Of a stretch of DNA of 64,000 nucleotides, positions 1-18,214 are shown piece after piece. The notes under the pieces were generated by a model. It worked only from the letters and a program-made list of their open reading frames with translations, made no database searches and was not told the DNA's origin. Source of the DNA: an uncultured Nitrospiraceae bacterium. GTDB taxonomy: Bacteria; Nitrospirota; Thermodesulfovibrionia; Thermodesulfovibrionales; Dissulfurispiraceae. The translations under genes were made by a program, and so were the position numbers. Location of the stretch: contig CAMTVO010000014.1 of NCBI GenBank assembly GCA_947085205.1, positions 17,946 to 81,945 on the forward strand, read 5' to 3'. Position 1 is the stretch's first letter, and every line of letters begins with the position of its first letter.

Positions 1-762
1 ACAATAAAGGTGATGAGGGAACATATGGAAGTAGTCAGGAAAGCGATGGAAAAACAAAAAAACATTTCAAATCCCCCCTTATCCCCCTTTTCTAAACTCC
101 TAACTCCTAACTCTCAACTCTCAACTATAATTGGTGTCCATCTTGAAGGGCCTTTCTTGAACCCGTCCAAATGCGGCGCATTAAATGCAATAACATTCAT
201 AGAGCCTACAGAATACAATTTCAAAGAACTCATAGAAGGTTTTGAGGATGTAATCAAGATAATCACCATTGCACCTGAAATAAACGGAGCGACAAAACTT
301 ATAAAAAATACAACTGATATGGGAATCATCGCAAGCATGGGACATTCCGATGCAACATATTCTGAGGCTGAAGCAGGCTTTCATGCAGGCGCAAAAGGTA
401 TCACTCACATATTCAACGCCACGAGGGGCTTTCATCACAGAGAGCCCGGAATTGCCGGTTTCGGGCTTTTAAATAAGGACATTTATATCGAAGTCATTGC
501 AGACCCTTATCATCTGCACCAAAAGACCATTGAACTGATATTTAAAACAAAGAATCCTGACAGAATAATTATTGTCTCTGATTCGGTAAAAGAGGCAACA
601 CCATTCACCAAAAGTCAGGGAGTTATGGACACGCATGGCAAACTCTTAGGTGGCTGTATAACTATTGCAGAATCCTCTCAGAGGCTCATTGAAATGGGCT
701 TTGACGAGGATGTTATAATAAAATGTATAACAGAAAATCCTGAAAGGTATCTAAATCAGTAA
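1..762 (+). CDS. nagA: N-acetylglucosamine-6-phosphate deacetylase, C-terminal ~250 aa (5' end outside window)
   Basis: Frame open from nt 1. Amidohydrolase/NagA-type motifs IGVHLEGPF, GHSDATY, ITHIFNA, REPGIAG, IVSDS. Stop at 760-762. Carries a repeat-derived in-frame segment at nt 71-126. Confidence 0.8.
   Translation, partial: TIKVMREHMEVVRKAMEKQKNISNPPLSPFSKLLTPNSQLSTIIGVHLEGPFLNPSKCGALNAITFIEPTEYNFKELIEGFEDVIKIITIAPEINGATKLIKNTTDMGIIASMGHSDATYSEAEAGFHAGAKGITHIFNATRGFHHREPGIAGFGLLNKDIYIEVIADPYHLHQKTIELIFKTKNPDRIIIVSDSVKEATPFTKSQGVMDTHGKLLGGCITIAESSQRLIEMGFDEDVIIKCITENPERYLNQ
95..126. repeat. Heptamer array AACTCCT x2, AACTCTC x2 (+partial) inside the nagA CDS
   Basis: Tandem 7-nt periodicity read directly. 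Preceded by two C-run units (71-89). Confidence 0.85.
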
Positions 763-809
763 TGTGTAATGTGTAATGTGTAATGTGTGTAATGAGTGAT
801 GAGTAAAGA
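759..809. repeat. Heptamer array GTAATGT x4 plus degenerate units (GTAATGA, GTGATGA, GTAAAGA)
   Basis: Spans the nagA stop codon, the spacer and the start codon of the M48 protease gene. Confidence 0.9.
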
Positions 810-5376: not shown

Positions 5377-7335
5377 TTACCCCTCAAACATCACTTTTCC
5401 CATATCCCTCGTATCATATCCTCCGAGGGATTCGACGGTAGCTCTGAATTCCTTGTTATTCCTTATGACGTCCAGTAATATCCTTATCATCTGCATATCC
5501 ATAAACTCTGCCGGAATTCCGATATCATAGCGCTCGCTGGCAACAGTGATAAAGTCGAGGCCGAGGGCCTTTGCAGAGGAATAGACTGCAAGTCCTGTAT
5601 CCGCAAGACCGGTGAGCACGGCTGATGCGACAGCCATATGTGTATATTCTTCCCTATCATATCCCTTGACCATATAGGGATTAATTCCAAGCTCCCTGAG
5701 ATGTTTATCAAGAAGCAGTCTCGTTCCCGAGCCTGACTGCCTGTTAATAAAAATCACATCATCCCTTATGAGGTCTTCAAAACCGTTGATATTCTTTGGA
5801 TTGCCTTTTTTTACAAGAAGCCCCTGCTGGCGATAAACAAGATTAACAAGAATAATCTTTCTGTCGGACAGCAATCTCTTGATAAACGGTATATTGTATT
5901 CCCCTGTCTGTTCATCCAACAGATGTGTTCCTGCAATATGCGCCTCTTTTCTCTTCAATGCCGTCAATCCGCCCATTGAGCCGACATGGGCTGATGACAG
6001 AGAAAATTCAGGATGGTTCTTCTTTATGGTATTTGCAAGGATGTCCAGTGTATTGTCATGGCTTCCTATGCATACGATAGTATTTTTAATCTCATTCTTA
6101 TTCCTCATCAGTTCTACTTCAACTTCAGTCCCTGCCTGTAAGCCTTCCGAGTTCACGGGAATTTTCAAAATACCGTCTGCCCTCACGAGGGACATAAGCA
6201 ATCCCGCTCCCCTGCCGACAGGAGTAGCAATATATTTATCATCGACAACTCCAACCTTTACCCTGATAAATTCATCCACACCCAATAGAGATGCAATCTG
6301 TCTTGAGATTTTAGCCTTTATCTTTTCATTTTCTTCCACAGCAACCCCCAATAGCCTTGCAATAACAGGCTTCACGAATAACTGGAATGTGAGATATGCT
6401 GAAACAGGATAGCCCGGAATGCCGAATACAGGCTTGTTATTAACAAAGCCTGCAATTAAGGGTTTGCCGGGTTTTATCGAAACACCGTTTATAATCACTT
6501 CTCCTAATTCCTTTATGGCTGTCAATGTATAGTCCTTTGAGCCTCTTCCTGCGCCTGCATTAATAAGAACAATATCTGATACCTTTGATGCCGCGCTTAT
6601 AGCCTTTTTAATTTCATCTAAATCATCTTTGACAATATTAAATCTTACAGCCTCTGCGCCGTATTCATTTGCAAGACCTGAAAACATCGATGAGTTGTAC
6701 TCTATTATCTCAGGAGGCTCAGGCGGCCTGTTTATTACAACATCAGGTTCGATAATCTCAGTGCCTGTCGGGATTACTGCAATCTTCGGCCTTTTCCTTG
6801 CAGATACTTCAATATGGCCGCTTGCGAGCATTGCTCCCATGTCTATTGGTCTTATTTTGTGGTTTTCGGAAATAATAAGCTCAGTTGCAACGATGTCCTC
6901 TCCGATTGTCCTTACATGCTGATACGGCGTAACAGGCTCATAAATCTCTATGCATTCCTCCTCTTGCCTCTCGCCTCTCGCCTCTCGCTTGATTATATTC
7001 ACATCTTCAATCATGATAACTGCATTGAAACCTTGAGGCATGGGGTCGCCTGTATCCACATACACAGTGTCGTATCCGATTTTCAGCATGTATGGAGATG
7101 TTTCTGATGCTGTGAATGTATCTGCAAATCTCACTGCATATCCGTCCATTGCAGCGGAGTGATAAAACGGCGATGAATACCTTGCAAATACAGGCTCTGC
7201 AGTTATACGGCCAAGGGATTCGGTAACATTTATAATCTCAGAAGGAAGGCGGTGCAGGCCTCTCTCATCAAAGTGATGAAAAAGGACTTTAATTGCTTCT
7301 TCGAGTGAAAGGCTGTCAAGGAATACAGATTTCAT
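5377..7335 (-). CDS. moeA: Molybdopterin molybdenumtransferase MoeA fused to a C-terminal periplasmic-binding-protein-like domain
   Basis: MoeA N-terminal and MoCF-binding regions (SPFYHSAAMDGYAV, PTGTEI, INAGAGRGSKDY, SIKPGKP). ~230-aa C-terminal PBP-like extension. Repeat-derived insert REARGERQEEE. Confidence 0.75.
   Translation of the reverse strand: MKSVFLDSLSLEEAIKVLFHHFDERGLHRLPSEIINVTESLGRITAEPVFARYSSPFYHSAAMDGYAVRFADTFTASETSPYMLKIGYDTVYVDTGDPMPQGFNAVIMIEDVNIIKREARGERQEEECIEIYEPVTPYQHVRTIGEDIVATELIISENHKIRPIDMGAMLASGHIEVSARKRPKIAVIPTGTEIIEPDVVINRPPEPPEIIEYNSSMFSGLANEYGAEAVRFNIVKDDLDEIKKAISAASKVSDIVLINAGAGRGSKDYTLTAIKELGEVIINGVSIKPGKPLIAGFVNNKPVFGIPGYPVSAYLTFQLFVKPVIARLLGVAVEENEKIKAKISRQIASLLGVDEFIRVKVGVVDDKYIATPVGRGAGLLMSLVRADGILKIPVNSEGLQAGTEVEVELMRNKNEIKNTIVCIGSHDNTLDILANTIKKNHPEFSLSSAHVGSMGGLTALKRKEAHIAGTHLLDEQTGEYNIPFIKRLLSDRKIILVNLVYRQQGLLVKKGNPKNINGFEDLIRDDVIFINRQSGSGTRLLLDKHLRELGINPYMVKGYDREEYTHMAVASAVLTGLADTGLAVYSSAKALGLDFITVASERYDIGIPAEFMDMQMIRILLDVIRNNKEFRATVESLGGYDTRDMGKVMFEG
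6957..6988. repeat. Heptamer array CTCTCGC x3 (+ CTCTTGC) inside moeA
   Basis: Read directly. Encodes REARGERQE on the minus strand. Confidence 0.85.
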
Positions 7336-10486: not shown

Positions 10487-10972
10487 TTATCTGCCTTTTC
10501 TGAACAAAGAAAAAAGACCTAAAACCCCTCCTGCAACAGCGCCCAGTGCAAGCGCAGAACGCCAGTCAAGGAGTGTTGTTACATTGCCGTTTATATTTTT
10601 GCCTATCATAAGTATTGAAGTGCTGTTGTTCGAATTGATATTCCTTGCGACCATGGCTCCCACAGCGCTTCTGTTTACTACTGTCTCATCGGCCGAAACC
10701 GAAACAGGTGCGAAAGAAAAGTTGAGGGTCGTAGTATTTCCGGCTGCAAGAATTCCTATGCTCTGGTTTAAAGAAAGATTTGCGCCTCTCATTAATACAG
10801 AAGCTCCCTGAGTAACCTCTACACGCTCGCCATCGATGCTCAATGCGCCGACCTGCTGCAACTCAATATGGCCGCCTTCCACAGACCTGACTGTGCTGTG
10901 CCTTATGTTCATAAACTCCGCTTCAACCATACCAAGGTTTTTATTCTCCATCTCTATTATCTCTTTTCCCAT
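10487..10972 (-). CDS. Hypothetical tail-anchored membrane protein with a beta-rich repetitive domain
   Basis: SD AAGGGGG upstream of ATG 10972. C-terminal hydrophobic helix ALALGAVAGGVLGLFSLF followed by RKGR. No family recognised. Confidence 0.5.
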   Translation of the reverse strand: MGKEIIEMENKNLGMVEAEFMNIRHSTVRSVEGGHIELQQVGALSIDGERVEVTQGASVLMRGANLSLNQSIGILAAGNTTTLNFSFAPVSVSADETVVNRSAVGAMVARNINSNNSTSILMIGKNINGNVTTLLDWRSALALGAVAGGVLGLFSLFRKGR

Positions 10973-10990
10973 ATTTTACCCCCTTTAGTT

Positions 10991-11049
10991 CAGTAAGCAT
11001 TAAACAGTGAGCAGTTTTCGGCTGACTGCTTACTGCTTACTGCTTACTG
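10991..11049. repeat. Inverted pair of arrays (CAGTAAG/CAGTGAG vs CTGCTTA), spacer between the hypothetical gene and valS
   Basis: Arms at 10991-11014 and 11022-11049. The right arm covers the valS C-terminus and stop. Confidence 0.9.
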
Positions 11050-13873
11050 TCTTTAATAGTTTTATGTTCTCCTCTATCTTTTCTTTTTTGTGGACAAAGT
11101 CATCAAACTTTGCCTTCTCCTTTTCGACCACAACCCTTGGAGCATTCTTCAAAAAATCTTCATTTAGAAGCTTCTTGTTTAACGTTGCTATTGAATCATC
11201 TATTTTCGACTTCTCTTTCTGAAGCCTCTCCACTTCAGATTTTATATCCAGCAGACCCTCTATTGGAATGTATATCTCCATCTTATCCCTTACGGATACC
11301 GCCGAGCCTTTTTCTTTCCTAATATCAGCCCCGATATTTATCTCTTTGCAACGTGTCAATTTCATTATAGCAGTAAGATTGTTTTTCATAACATCTTCCA
11401 CTTCCTTTGAAGCGGTTTTTATACCTGCCCTCATTTCAAGAGATGGGGCGATATTCAACTCTCCCCTTATGCTCCTTATGCCGGTTATCGCACTTATTAT
11501 ATAGTCCATCTGTTCCTCAGCATCGGGATATTTAGGTAAATCTACCGGATATTGTGATATCATAATACTTTTGCTCTGCTCAAATACGGTATTCCACAAT
11601 TCTTCTGTAACATACGGCATAAATGGATGTAACAACTGAATGATCTTCTCAAGAACAAAGAACAAACAATTTATAACCGCCGCCTTTTCTTCGCTGCTTC
11701 CGTGATAAAGAACAGGCTTTGTAAACTCTATATACCAGTCGCAGAATTCATGCCACACAAACTGGTATATGCTGTTGGCCGCATCGTTGAACCTGTAGTT
11801 TCCAAGATTTCTGTTGACCTCTTCTGCTGTAAAAGCCAGTCTGCTCAGTATCCATCTGCCCGGAAGGTCTAAGTCCTTGTCATGCCCGTGCAGCGGCTGC
11901 TTTGCCCATAATTCTTCGTTATTCACTATGAATTTTGCGGCATTCCATAATTTATTTATGAAATGTCTGTACCCTTCGACCCTATCTTCGGAAAATCTCA
12001 CATCCCTTCCCTGAGCAGCAAATGCAGCAAGGGTAAACCTGAAGGCATCGGCGCCGTATTTATCTATCATTACGAGAGGGTCTATCACATTGCCTTTTGA
12101 CTTGGACATCTTATGTCCCTTTGAGTCACGAACAAGGGCATGGATATACACATCCCTGAAAGGAGCATCTTTCATTACCTTCAGTCCCATCATAATCATT
12201 CTTGCGACCCAGAAGAATAAAATATCAAAGCCTGTGACAAGAACACCCGTCGGATAAAATGTCTTTAAATCCTCTGTCTCTTGCGGCCATCCGAGAGTAG
12301 AAAACGGCCATAATGCAGATGAAAACCATGTATCAAGAACATCAGGGTCCCGGATGATATTTTTGCTGCCGCACTTAGGGCATTCCGTTAGCTCTTCCCT
12401 CTGACAAATCGGTTTTACTTTCTTTGATATCCTTATAATCTTTGAATTCCTGATTATTTCCTCATGGCTCATTCCCAGCTTTTTCAATTCTGAATATATA
12501 CCGCCGGTAGCCTTGATTCCCGCACGGAGCATTACAGGCTCAAAAAATATATGCTCTATTATTTCGCCTTGAGGAGGTGTACCGTCTTCTCCTTTGCAGT
12601 CAGGACAGCACCAGACAGGTATCTGGTGTCCCCACCATATCTGGCGTGATATGCACCAGTCCTTTATGTCTCTCATCCATGCAAAATAGTTGTTTTCCCA
12701 TGAATCAGGAATGAGCCTTATTGTTTTGTCCTGCACTGCCCTTACAGCCTCAGATGCAAGAGACTCTATTTTGACATACCACTGAATTGTAAGCAGAGGC
12801 TCTATTATGGTCTTGCATCTGTAGCAATGTCCCACAGAATGGAGGTATTTCTTATCGCCTTCAAGCAAATCAAGTTCTCTTAAATCCTCAACTATCTTTT
12901 TCCTGCAAATGTATCTGTCAAGGCCGCTGTATCTTTCTCCTGCTTCTGCAGACATGCGTCCGTCTTCAGAAATTACGCTGATTGATTTAAGCTTATGGCG
13001 TTTGCCGATTGCTTCGTCATTAAAATCGTGTGCAGGTGTAACCTTTACAGCGCCTGTTCCAAAAGCAGGATCAACAGCAGCATCTGCAATTACAGGAATT
13101 TTTCTGCCTGTCAAAGGCAAATCGAGGTTTTTACCGATAATATCTTTATATCTCTCGTCTTCAGGATGGACGGCAACCGCCGTATCACCGAGCATAGTCT
13201 CCGGTCTTGTGGTTGCAACAGTTATATACCCCCCCTCTATCCGAACAGGGGGGGTAAGAGGATATTTTATGCTGTAAAGTTTGCCTTCGATTTCTTCATA
13301 TTCCACTTCAAGGTCGGAAAGCGCAGTATGGCATCTCGGACACCAGTTAATTAGACGGTTATCCCTGTATACAAGCCCTTCCTCAAAAAGCCTTACAAAC
13401 ACTTCCCTTACGGCAGCGGATAATCCTTCATCAAGGGTGAACCGTTCTCTCGACCAGTCGCATGAAGCGCCTATTTTTTTTAGCTGGTGTATTATCTTTC
13501 CGCCGTATTCGGCCTTCCATTTCCAGACCCTTTCAATGAACGTCTCTCTTCCAAGTTTATGCCTGTCGATTCCTTCCTTTGAAAGCTCCCTCTCCACCAC
13601 ATTCTGTGTTGCTATTCCTGCATGGTCGGTTCCAGGGAGCCACAAGACTTTATGTCCAGACATCCTCTTCCATCGTGTAAGAATGTCCTGAATTGTGGCA
13701 TTGAGTGCATGACCCATGTGGAGGGAACCAGTAACATTGGGCGGCGGTATGACTATGCAGAACGGTGCTTTTGTGGCATTAGGATTCGGCTTAAAATATC
13801 CATTCTGCTCCCAAAAAACATACCACTTGTCTTCTATGTCTTCCGGACTGTAAGTTTTCTTTAGTTCAATCAT
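11030..13873 (-). CDS. valS: Valyl-tRNA synthetase
   Basis: Class I signatures PPPNVTGSLHMGH and KMSKSKGN, TTRPETM, C-terminal coiled coil. 947 aa, with an enlarged CxxC...CxxC insertion. Confidence 0.97.
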   Translation of the reverse strand: MIELKKTYSPEDIEDKWYVFWEQNGYFKPNPNATKAPFCIVIPPPNVTGSLHMGHALNATIQDILTRWKRMSGHKVLWLPGTDHAGIATQNVVERELSKEGIDRHKLGRETFIERVWKWKAEYGGKIIHQLKKIGASCDWSRERFTLDEGLSAAVREVFVRLFEEGLVYRDNRLINWCPRCHTALSDLEVEYEEIEGKLYSIKYPLTPPVRIEGGYITVATTRPETMLGDTAVAVHPEDERYKDIIGKNLDLPLTGRKIPVIADAAVDPAFGTGAVKVTPAHDFNDEAIGKRHKLKSISVISEDGRMSAEAGERYSGLDRYICRKKIVEDLRELDLLEGDKKYLHSVGHCYRCKTIIEPLLTIQWYVKIESLASEAVRAVQDKTIRLIPDSWENNYFAWMRDIKDWCISRQIWWGHQIPVWCCPDCKGEDGTPPQGEIIEHIFFEPVMLRAGIKATGGIYSELKKLGMSHEEIIRNSKIIRISKKVKPICQREELTECPKCGSKNIIRDPDVLDTWFSSALWPFSTLGWPQETEDLKTFYPTGVLVTGFDILFFWVARMIMMGLKVMKDAPFRDVYIHALVRDSKGHKMSKSKGNVIDPLVMIDKYGADAFRFTLAAFAAQGRDVRFSEDRVEGYRHFINKLWNAAKFIVNNEELWAKQPLHGHDKDLDLPGRWILSRLAFTAEEVNRNLGNYRFNDAANSIYQFVWHEFCDWYIEFTKPVLYHGSSEEKAAVINCLFFVLEKIIQLLHPFMPYVTEELWNTVFEQSKSIMISQYPVDLPKYPDAEEQMDYIISAITGIRSIRGELNIAPSLEMRAGIKTASKEVEDVMKNNLTAIMKLTRCKEINIGADIRKEKGSAVSVRDKMEIYIPIEGLLDIKSEVERLQKEKSKIDDSIATLNKKLLNEDFLKNAPRVVVEKEKAKFDDFVHKKEKIEENIKLLKTVSSKQ
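13227..13256. repeat. C7...G7 palindromic element inside valS
   Basis: TACCCCCCC-tctatccgaaca-GGGGGGGTA. Encodes LTPPVRIEGGY. Confidence 0.8.
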
Positions 13874-13966: not shown

Positions 13967-14920
13967 AATCTCTGAAGTAATCTTTTCTATCTCTTTTTTT
14001 ATCAGTGTCTCTGCAACTTCCGGGACAATTCTTTTTATTGCAGCATCTATTTCGCCGCGCAATGATCTCAACAGGTCTTTTATCACTTCTCTCGTTACAT
14101 CCTCAATAATGTCAGGGACGTTGCTTGATATTGCCTCTTTCACAGAATCCTGTATTGTTAAAGAAATATCGCTGCTTATTATACTGGAAACCTTTTCTTC
14201 AATGGTCTGTTTTATTATTTCGTATATCTCTTCCTTTGCAGGTAATTCTACTTCCTTTAACTCGTAACTCTTAACTCCTAACTCCTCACCGCCTTTCAAC
14301 GCCTCGGCGAGCTCTTCTGCAAATCCCTTTGTATCCTCAGATAAAGCAGCCTTAGCTTCATATTCCTCATCCGCCATTACCTCTTCGGCCTTTTCTTCTG
14401 CAATAGGAATTTCTTCGTCCCATTTCGGCTCTTCCCGAGTTTGCGGAGTAGCCGATACTGCTAATTCCACTGTAGCTTCAGGGGCATCTTCTGTTGCGGC
14501 CAACAACTCCTCTTCTATCGCCTCTTCCGGCTCCGTCTTCTTTGACTGCTCAAAGCCGACAAGCAGTGCTTTCACTTTGCTTATCAACTCCTGCGACTCG
14601 AATGGTTTAATGATAAAGTCGTCTGCAAAAACAGATTTTGCATATTCTTCGTCGAAAGGTTCAAAGGCACCTGCAAGTAAAATTACAGGAATAGCTGCAG
14701 TAGCCATATCATTTTTAATCTTTTCGCACAACTGATACCCGTTCAATTTAGGCATCTCGATGTCGGCAAGAATTATGTCGGGTTTAAAAGACTCCATTGC
14801 ATTTAATGCCTGCTCGCCGTCATTAAATGCCCTTATTTCGAAATTTTCCGACGTAAGGACAAGCTCAACCACCTTCTGTATGGTGAGGCTATCGTCTGCT
14901 AATAATAGTTTATAGGGCAT
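13958..14920 (-). CDS. Response regulator: receiver domain plus ~200-aa acidic, low-complexity/helical C-terminal region
   Basis: REC motifs LLADDS, ILADIEMPKLNG, IIKPF. The tail is rich in E/A/K and no output domain was recognised. Confidence 0.8.
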   Translation of the reverse strand: MPYKLLLADDSLTIQKVVELVLTSENFEIRAFNDGEQALNAMESFKPDIILADIEMPKLNGYQLCEKIKNDMATAAIPVILLAGAFEPFDEEYAKSVFADDFIIKPFESQELISKVKALLVGFEQSKKTEPEEAIEEELLAATEDAPEATVELAVSATPQTREEPKWDEEIPIAEEKAEEVMADEEYEAKAALSEDTKGFAEELAEALKGGEELGVKSYELKEVELPAKEEIYEIIKQTIEEKVSSIISSDISLTIQDSVKEAISSNVPDIIEDVTREVIKDLLRSLRGEIDAAIKRIVPEVAETLIKKEIEKITSEIRQ

Positions 14921-17533: not shown

Positions 17534-18214
17534 CTACTTTGCCTTTTCCTCAAAAAGCTCTTCTTCCTGTTTGTCCTTCATCTTCTTGACAAGCTCTTCG
17601 TAGGAATCCCGCAGAATGATCTTATTAAATTGTGTCCTGTAATTGCTTACGAGGCTTACGCCTTCTATCACCACATCATATACTTCCCATTTGCCATTCT
17701 TTTTGAGGAGCCTGTAATGTATAGGTATTTCAACATTTCTCTTTGTGATTACCTTGCTTTTTACAACAGAGTATTCGCCCTCTATATCCTCACCCACATA
17801 CAAAATCTTTTCGTCTTCATAGGCCTCAATCTTTTTAATATATGACCTTTCAAGAAGGTCGGCATATAACGGCACAAACTCTTTTCTTTCCTCTGGCGTC
17901 CTTTTTCTCCAATGAAGGGCGAGGGACCTCTTTGCCATTTCCTCAAAATCAAATCTCTCGGAAATAGTCTTGCGGATTGCAGTCCTTCGCTCCTTTGTTT
18001 TTTCCGGCTTCTTCAGTTCCTTGTTTCTTAAGATATCAAGAACCTTATCAACGGTCTGCTTTACCTGATTTGTAGGCTCACCAGCATAGGCATCAGAAGC
18101 AGTGAATAGTGAATAGTGAATAGTGAACAGCAGAAGCATAACGAGTAACGAGTAATGAGTAACAAGTTTTTTGAAATCTGAAATCTGAAATCTGAAATCT
18201 GAAATTTTTCCCAT
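17534..18214 (-). CDS. mlaC: MlaC/Ttg2D-family periplasmic lipid-binding protein
   Basis: Tol-tolerance family pattern (RRTAIRKTISERFDFEEMAKRSLALHWRK...ERKEF). Signal peptide ends AYA|G. SD GAGAGG before ATG 18214. Confidence 0.8.
   Translation of the reverse strand: MGKISDFRFQISDFKKLVTHYSLLVMLLLFTIHYSLFTASDAYAGEPTNQVKQTVDKVLDILRNKELKKPEKTKERRTAIRKTISERFDFEEMAKRSLALHWRKRTPEERKEFVPLYADLLERSYIKKIEAYEDEKILYVGEDIEGEYSVVKSKVITKRNVEIPIHYRLLKKNGKWEVYDVVIEGVSLVSNYRTQFNKIILRDSYEELVKKMKDKQEEELFEEKAK
18100..18205. repeat. Three consecutive heptamer arrays (TAGTGAA x3-4; GTAACGA-type x4; CTGAAAT x5) in the mlaC 5' coding region
   Basis: Arrays at 18100-18130, 18137-18166 and 18171-18205. Confidence 0.9.

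Follow-up and report, generated by a model that had tools for sequence, protein, structure and literature searches.

Is a tandem heptamer that carries a stop codon in every unit on one strand, and none on the other, a device for ending translation in any frame, or is the asymmetry what selection leaves behind when a repeat spreads through a genome? This question is raised by a 59-nt hairpin at positions 10991 to 11049 of the window (the whole stretch of DNA analyzed, 64,000 nucleotides from an uncultured Nitrospiraceae bacterium), where a repeat unit provides the stop codon of valS. A preliminary description of the window had offered both readings, a frame-independent translational insulator and the footprint of selection on a spreading element. 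Here, the arrays were tallied over the whole genome, and their positions, stops and hairpin partners were compared with expectations from composition and with related genomes.

The hairpin at the end of valS

The hairpin lies between two minus-strand genes, one on either side, and consists of the following parts.

10991 to 11049, minus strand: heptamer-armed hairpin at the junction of valS and the next gene (RNA fold, sequence)
11030 to 11032, minus strand: TAA stop codon of valS, in the third repeat unit (ORF 11030 to 13873)
11025 to 11049, minus strand: 5' arm, three CAGTAAG units and the start of a CAGTCAG unit
11016 to 11024, minus strand: hairpin loop, sense CAGCCGAAA (RNA fold)
10991 to 11015, minus strand: 3' arm, sense ACTGCTCACTGTTTAATGCTTACTG, words of the CTTACTG/CTCACTG type (sequence, fold)
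10970 to 10983, minus strand: Shine-Dalgarno GGGGG (10979 to 10983) and ATG (10970 to 10972) of the downstream gene

When the sense strand was folded as RNA, two arms of 25 nt were predicted to enclose a loop of 9 nt with a free energy of -30.9 kcal/mol (z -5.46), and none of 200 shuffles folded as well. In the sense direction, three copies of CAGTAAG and one of CAGTCAG are followed by the loop, the complementary arm, GGGGG and ATG; the tandem repeat itself was found by TRF at 11021 to 11049 (4.1 copies, score 51). The 5' arm presents TAA in all three sense frames, and the words of the 3' arm are free of stops on the sense strand. The upstream ORF matched the NCBIfam model of valine--tRNA ligase (E reported as 0). 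Because its stop codon is the TAA of the third unit (11032 to 11030), the final five residues of the protein, VSSKQ, are encoded by the array. The downstream ORF of 161 aa (10487 to 10972, minus strand) had no NCBIfam or Pfam match. Two other identities of the hairpin were considered and rejected. No U-run follows it on the sense strand, as an intrinsic terminator would have, and the whole window was without an Rfam match to a known RNA family.

Number and word classes of the arrays in the genome

The genome comprises 1.885 Mb, in which 1858 genes (91% coding) were called with a dicodon model, the start sites near arrays being uncertain in these calls. TRF reported 547 rows of period 7 and 205 of period 8, compared with 43 and 46 in a copy of the genome generated by a third-order Markov model, where no row scored above 40. 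With a cutoff score of at least 36, the tally contained 438 arrays (340 heptamer and 98 octamer) built from 157 distinct words. Most arrays have three to five imperfect units, and four is the modal number (4.x units in 211 of the 438). Besides the valS hairpin, the arrays of the window that are discussed below are as follows.

759 to 788, plus strand: (GTAATGT)4 array, source of the nagA stop codon at 760 to 762
91 to 126, plus strand: AACTCCT/AACTCTC array inside nagA, in the stop-bearing orientation, with the in-frame unit reading CAA at 115 to 117
6960 to 6988, minus strand: CCTCTCG/GCGAGAG array in a moeA-type gene, the word being stop-free on both strands
14258 to 14286, minus strand: GGAGTTA array in a response-regulator gene, in the stop-bearing orientation, with the in-frame unit reading TAC (frame from d5=634)
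18101 to 18205, minus strand: three arrays in the open orientation (sense ATTCACT, TCGTTAC and ATTTCAG) at the 5' end of an MlaC/HpnM-like ORF

The stop content that had been ascribed to individual words was read correctly. CAGTGAA, CAGTAAG, GTAACGA, CTGAAAT, CTGACTG, AATAGGC and GTAATGT/C each contain one stop in a circular reading, their reverse complements are stop-free, CTATGAG and TATAACTC contain stops on both strands, and CTCTCGC contains none on either. Over the genome, a stop on one strand only was found in 60% of the 438 arrays (both strands 20%, neither 20%) and in 48% of the 157 distinct words (both 23%, neither 29%), compared with 43% of intergenic 7-mers after masking of the arrays (both 17%, neither 40%). 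Against these 7-mers, the chi-square P value was 2e-17 for the arrays and 0.007 for the distinct words, figures that overstate the significance, as do the other P values in this study, because the words are mutually related, forming a few large families common to several genera, so that independent cases are few. Since only 48% of the distinct words are asymmetric, the excess of asymmetry is driven by a few abundant words. Single-linkage clustering gave no usable count of independent word families, because 110 of 111 words fell together when one mismatch was allowed.

Arrays at gene ends and in spacers

The stop codon of 38 genes, including valS, comes from an array. The stop used lies 1 to 23 nt into the array, with one case at 34 nt, and the positions are spread roughly evenly, as expected for a random phase. 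Growth of the arrays from the gene's own stop was ruled out, since the stop used lies 1 to 23 nt in and thus also beyond the first unit.

For spacers, the lack of an orientation bias had been named in the preliminary description as a refutation. No bias toward the sense strand was found when the spacers between same-direction genes were pooled, in which 16 arrays carried the stop on the sense strand only and 28 on the antisense strand only (P 0.10). The orientation depends on position instead. Among the arrays overlapping no ORF, those nearest the upstream stop were 12 sense-only and 9 antisense-only, whereas those nearest the next start were 4 sense-only and 19 antisense-only (P 0.011 versus the stop-proximal ones). 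The base composition of the same arrays followed the same division, G exceeding C on the sense strand in a ratio of 29:13 near the upstream stop, compared with 10:27 near the downstream start (P 3e-4). Of the arrays close to a start, 69 were antisense-only and 10 sense-only, so that the open orientation prevails there. Thus, a position rule that the earlier description missed is present: stop-bearing, G-rich arrays adjoin the upstream stop, and the open, C-rich arm adjoins the next start.

If the stops in spacer arrays were kept by selection, their triplets should differ less from the unit consensus than the other positions do. The mismatch rate was 8.2% within stop triplets versus 7.0% outside them, and 72 of 91 changed stop triplets had lost the stop. 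There is no sign that selection maintains these stops.

Polarity of the hairpins and the excess of stops

An inverted partner lies no more than 90 nt away from about two thirds of the spacer arrays and about a quarter of the intragenic ones. After removal of duplicates, 84 hairpins remained. Stops were present in the 5' arm only in 38, in the 3' arm only in 1, in both arms in 36 and in neither arm in 9, compared with 35.7, 8.0, 18.6 and 21.7 expected when the letters were shuffled within each word; the single hairpin with a stop in the 3' arm only corresponds to a P value of about 0.002 to 0.004. The 5' arm had more G than C in 70 hairpins and more C than G in 7, the 3' arm being C-rich, and most of the stop polarity is therefore compositional. 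Because both strands of a hairpin give the same reading, its polarity is independent of gene direction and produces a rule of position.

The remainder is an excess of stops over composition. Stop-carrying arms numbered 74 of 84 at the 5' side versus 54 expected, and 37 versus 26.7 at the 3' side, about 1.37-fold in both cases. By triplet, T-N-A or TAG/CTA was about 1.37-fold commoner in the array words than in letter-shuffled words, equally on both arms. This excess of T-N-A and TAG/CTA is strand symmetric and therefore not the pattern expected of a device that stops sense translation. Selection on the sense strand at the RNA level was likewise considered and found wanting, since sense and antisense transcripts of the hairpins folded equally stably (32 versus 28) and had similar numbers of G-U pairs (124 versus 102).

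In related genomes, only 10 hairpins were found in 400 kb of G008 and only 5 in 286 kb of G018. Of these 15, 12 had the G>C polarity, and the stop polarity was weak (G008 A 3 : B 3, G018 A 2 : B 1, several of these calls being doubtful). Words without stops have the G>C polarity as well, as does a hairpin of G008 whose stop lies in the 3' arm.

Two further features of the hairpins were observed. A single large family runs against the G>C rule, with ATAGCTC first and GAGCTAT second, and its arm order is constant, also in G008. In addition, many stems leave one position per heptamer unpaired (six paired, one mismatched), so that mismatches recur with a period of 7 nt.

These data bear directly on the proposal of a selected translational insulator, in which three-frame stops on the arm facing the ribosome would end translation before the hairpin, the gain being protection of the stem or uncoupling of neighboring cistrons in either orientation of the element. 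Several results point that way: on both strands, the arm with the stops is the 5' one almost without exception (38:1), hairpins with a stop-carrying 5' arm and those with stops in both arms exceed the expectation from composition, and stop-free hairpins fall short of it. The reading frames downstream of genes are also closed after a shorter distance where there is an array (median, 49 versus 106 nt), a comparison confounded by the frames of the downstream genes. However, conservation of the stop triplets in spacer arrays does not exceed that of the rest of the unit, spacers have no net sense bias, and the enrichment is the same in the 3' arm, which is unable to stop sense translation before the loop. 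The polarity tracks G>C even where the word is stop-free or the stop sits in the 3' arm. Furthermore, the stop in use usually lies within the hairpin stem, and a terminating ribosome would therefore melt the stem anyway. In a published survey, no evidence is reported of selection for fail-safe extra stops in bacteria (Ho and Hurst 2019, PMC6764699). Taken together, these points make the insulator improbable, and this half of the preliminary description was not supported.

The excess of stops also sets a limit on the reading that we prefer, namely selection acting on a spreading, polar element. Words without stops account for 20% of arrays and 29% of distinct words, compared with 40% of intergenic 7-mers. 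Filtering against gene damage alone should, if anything, have enriched stop-free words, and such a filter does not account for the excess of stop triplets. It could be that outward-facing stops in the hairpins are themselves selected, because closure of any frame from either side would let a family settle harmlessly at gene ends. We consider this doubtful, at a low level of credence; if it were true, the repeat would be selfish but self-insulating, or would have been domesticated to mark the boundary between cistrons.

Arrays inside genes

Inside genes there were 283 arrays, of which 204 were deep internal (at least 150 nt from the start and at least 60 nt from the end) and 79 lay near ORF edges, mostly in the first 150 nt. 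The preliminary description had stated that intragenic arrays are almost always in the stop-free orientation, and the genome-wide count bears this out. Asymmetric words were open in 161 cases and stop-bearing in 19 (P 3e-29), a ratio that mostly follows from the definition of an ORF, which excludes a three-frame stop; among the deep-internal arrays the counts were 109 and 15.

The effect of selection can be read from the arrays in which a stop-bearing word does lie on the sense strand. In these 50 intragenic arrays, the consensus stop was abolished at all 51 in-frame positions and at only 17 of 138 out-of-frame positions (Fisher P 9e-32). For example, in a CAGTGAG array in pheT (G000:C38:10692-10727), which is in the stop-bearing orientation, every third unit, the one in frame, reads CAGTCAG. 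The array adds EQSAVSSEQSA to PheT, about 10 residues more, in a loop where the closest orthologues have three at the site. The exception claimed for nagA is of the same kind: TAA stands off frame at 101 to 103 and 108 to 110, and at 93 to 95 just upstream, and the in-frame unit is CAA at 115 to 117. The moeA exception is also real, the array at 6960 to 6988 being built from the CTCTCGC word, without a stop either way. Words with stops on both strands had been described as confined to spacers and gene ends. This is true of exact CTATGAG and TATAACTC, save for one array near a gene edge, but not of the class as a whole, to which 30 of the 204 deep-internal arrays belong; in each of the 30, the in-frame unit is mutated.

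Stop-free words, too, have a preferred orientation inside genes (AACTCCG 6:1, AAGACAG 5:1 and AAACTCC 4:0). Since these words have no stop to avoid, something beyond stops, such as the encoded residues, appears to filter orientation.

All of this presupposes that the genes are real. An ORF by definition lacks a three-frame stop, and for the 79 arrays near ORF edges the uncertain starts leave room for error, so that the intragenic arrays might in fact lie in spacers or in over-extended 5' ends. We regard such an artifact of ORF calling as very unlikely for the set as a whole: a coding signal in the best frame was present on both flanks of 195 of the 204 deep-internal arrays, the PheT and nagA arrays lie within conserved proteins, and out-of-frame stops are retained while in-frame ones are lost. 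The deep-internal arrays sit in real genes. Phase variation, in which slippage by 7 nt would bring stops of another frame into play and shut genes off, suits a unit length that is no multiple of 3 and several perfect arrays in the 5' coding regions of envelope and flagellar genes, but is scarcely credible for arrays that lie in essential single-copy genes (the end of valS, the loop of pheT) and in spacers and that mostly have only three to five imperfect units.

The valS junction in relatives and the spread of the element

The loop of the valS hairpin, CAGTTTTCGGCTGA on the plus strand, recurs unchanged in copies on contigs C28 and C33. These copies match the window hairpin at 86 to 90% over 52 to 56 nt and occur in both orientations relative to their genes. 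Resembling hairpins were also found in G011, G002, G006 and G018. On sequence grounds, the copies with a shared loop in both orientations fit a spreading element, and we infer that it spread by copying. A gene that might accompany such an element between inverted heptamer arrays, the small four-helix-bundle gene of family PF05635 (23S rRNA intervening-sequence protein), was absent from the 9 small array-flanked genes and the 20 distant inverted array pairs of this genome, which is 89.7% complete; the genes between arrays were ordinary ones only, such as those for a response regulator, Hsp20 and ribosomal proteins.

At the valS junction, most other relatives have no array and a short plain spacer. 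In eight related genera, the valS protein ends 2 to 8 residues, mostly 2 to 5, past the conserved (L/F)(L/M/N)(K/R/T)(T/E/A) motif. The related genus G018 (L002, G018:C78, about 1937 to 2126) has a different hairpin at the same junction, built from the 8-mer GCGTTATA, which also provides the valS stop codon. Since this hairpin differs from that of the window and supplies the stop as well, the junction has been hit independently, the first arm ending the gene both times. Together with the erasure of in-frame stops and the same-loop copies in both orientations, this is what a footprint of selection on a spreading element would look like, and this half of the preliminary description was supported.

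At the valS junction of L006 (G013:C12), the flanks resemble those of the window hairpin (ACAG...TCAGC) but enclose no more than a short hairpin, TGGTCAGC ... GCTGGCCA. This is a hint that growth in place from a simple stem may be a further source of arrays.

Comparison with known repeats

Heptamers in genome-wide tandem arrays, the STRR (short tandemly repeated repetitive) sequences, were reportedly described in heterocystous cyanobacteria, a different phylum, by Mazel et al. in 1990, in several word families. Several STRR words contain CAGT/ACTG, as do many words here. No analysis of stop codons is known for the STRR heptamers.

The logic of stops and orientation is already published for similar repeats (MacGregor 2015; Rehm 2015; Delihas 2007). 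The TAACTGA repeats of marine Beggiatoaceae, cyanobacteria and Bacteroidetes have two to six units and lie mostly at gene boundaries. Forward TAACTGA has stops in all three frames and overlaps the gene end by at most 18 nt, whereas the reverse is translatable (LSVISYQ) and found within ORFs, a distribution ascribed to stop content (MacGregor 2015, PMC4679880). The arrays described here resemble them in being short tandem 7-nt units far above chance, with the closed orientation at gene ends and in spacers and the open orientation in ORFs (38 gene stops; 161:19). They differ in the number of words, about 157 distinct 7- and 8-mers against a single one, in that many form inverted hairpin pairs, and in that nearly half are deep inside genes. 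In addition, TAACTGA occurs mostly as single direct arrays, forward, just upstream of starts, whereas the start-proximal arrays here are mostly in the open orientation.

The GGGAATC heptamers of Xanthomonas and GGGGAYT heptamers of Nostoc prefer four units and are concentrated between genes of the same direction (Rehm et al. 2015, PMC4692102). Their G-rich strand is the coding strand within 50 bp after a stop, or the non-coding strand just before a start, and their G-tracts fold into quadruplexes; stop codons were not discussed by the authors (PMC4692102). The arrays in this genome share the four-unit mode, the enrichment between same-direction genes and the strand rule (for G>C, 29:13 beside stops compared with 10:27 beside starts). 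Unlike those heptamers, however, words such as CAGTAAG, CGTAATG, AATAGGC and GAGTTAA have no GGG tracts and pair as hairpins. The absence of G-tracts here argues that the rule belongs to the repeat elements and not to G-quadruplexes.

A third comparison is with MITE-type repeats (Correia/NEMIS, RUP, CIR, RPE, ERIC and YPAL), whose forms with stops in all frames are intergenic and whose open forms are fused into genes, some of them contributing signal peptides (Delihas 2007, PMC2229807). The likeness lies in small dispersed hairpin repeats with near-identical copies that include the non-repetitive loop. MITEs are 100 to 200 bp long, with terminal inverted repeats and target duplications, whereas the arms here are tandem heptamers.

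Origin of the stop asymmetry

We put a probability of about three in four on the reading that the stop asymmetry is a by-product of arithmetic, element polarity and purifying selection; no sign of a device was found. The arithmetic would begin with the stop codons, all three of which can be written T-purine-purine, with complements of the form pyrimidine-pyrimidine-A, and a short word skewed toward purines would carry stops almost exclusively on its purine-rich strand. In random heptamers with five purines, the probability of a stop on this strand only is 0.44 and that of a stop on the other strand only is 0.046. Among the asymmetric words of the genome, the stop strand is purine-rich in 54 of 76, with G exceeding C in 51 and C exceeding G in 14. 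With a period of 7 or 8, three units would then spread a stop over all three frames.

The polarity would come from the elements. Each array is one arm of a small hairpin element or stands alone as a single arm, the elements having a 5' side rich in G and purines and a 3' side rich in C and pyrimidines, and this polarity presumably arises from how the elements are made. Whatever the direction of the element or of the genes, the stop-bearing arm would then adjoin the end of the upstream gene and the open arm the next start. Purifying selection would do the rest: intragenic copies would survive only if they are open, if their in-frame stops are mutated or if they lie within the last few codons and supply the stop. 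The valS array would be a case of the last kind.

Implications

Had the arrays proved to be translational insulators, they would have represented a novel type of signal at gene boundaries. What the genome offers instead is an example of how T-purine-purine stops and a strand-skewed repeat can together give an appearance of design. Here, the strand-position rule known from Xanthomonas and Nostoc is extended to a Nitrospirota genome. In this compact genome, the insertion of repeats is strongly filtered, with every in-frame stop erased and 88% of the out-of-frame stops kept. At the same time, the repeats rewrite gene ends, and 38 genes, valS among them, owe their stop codon to an array.
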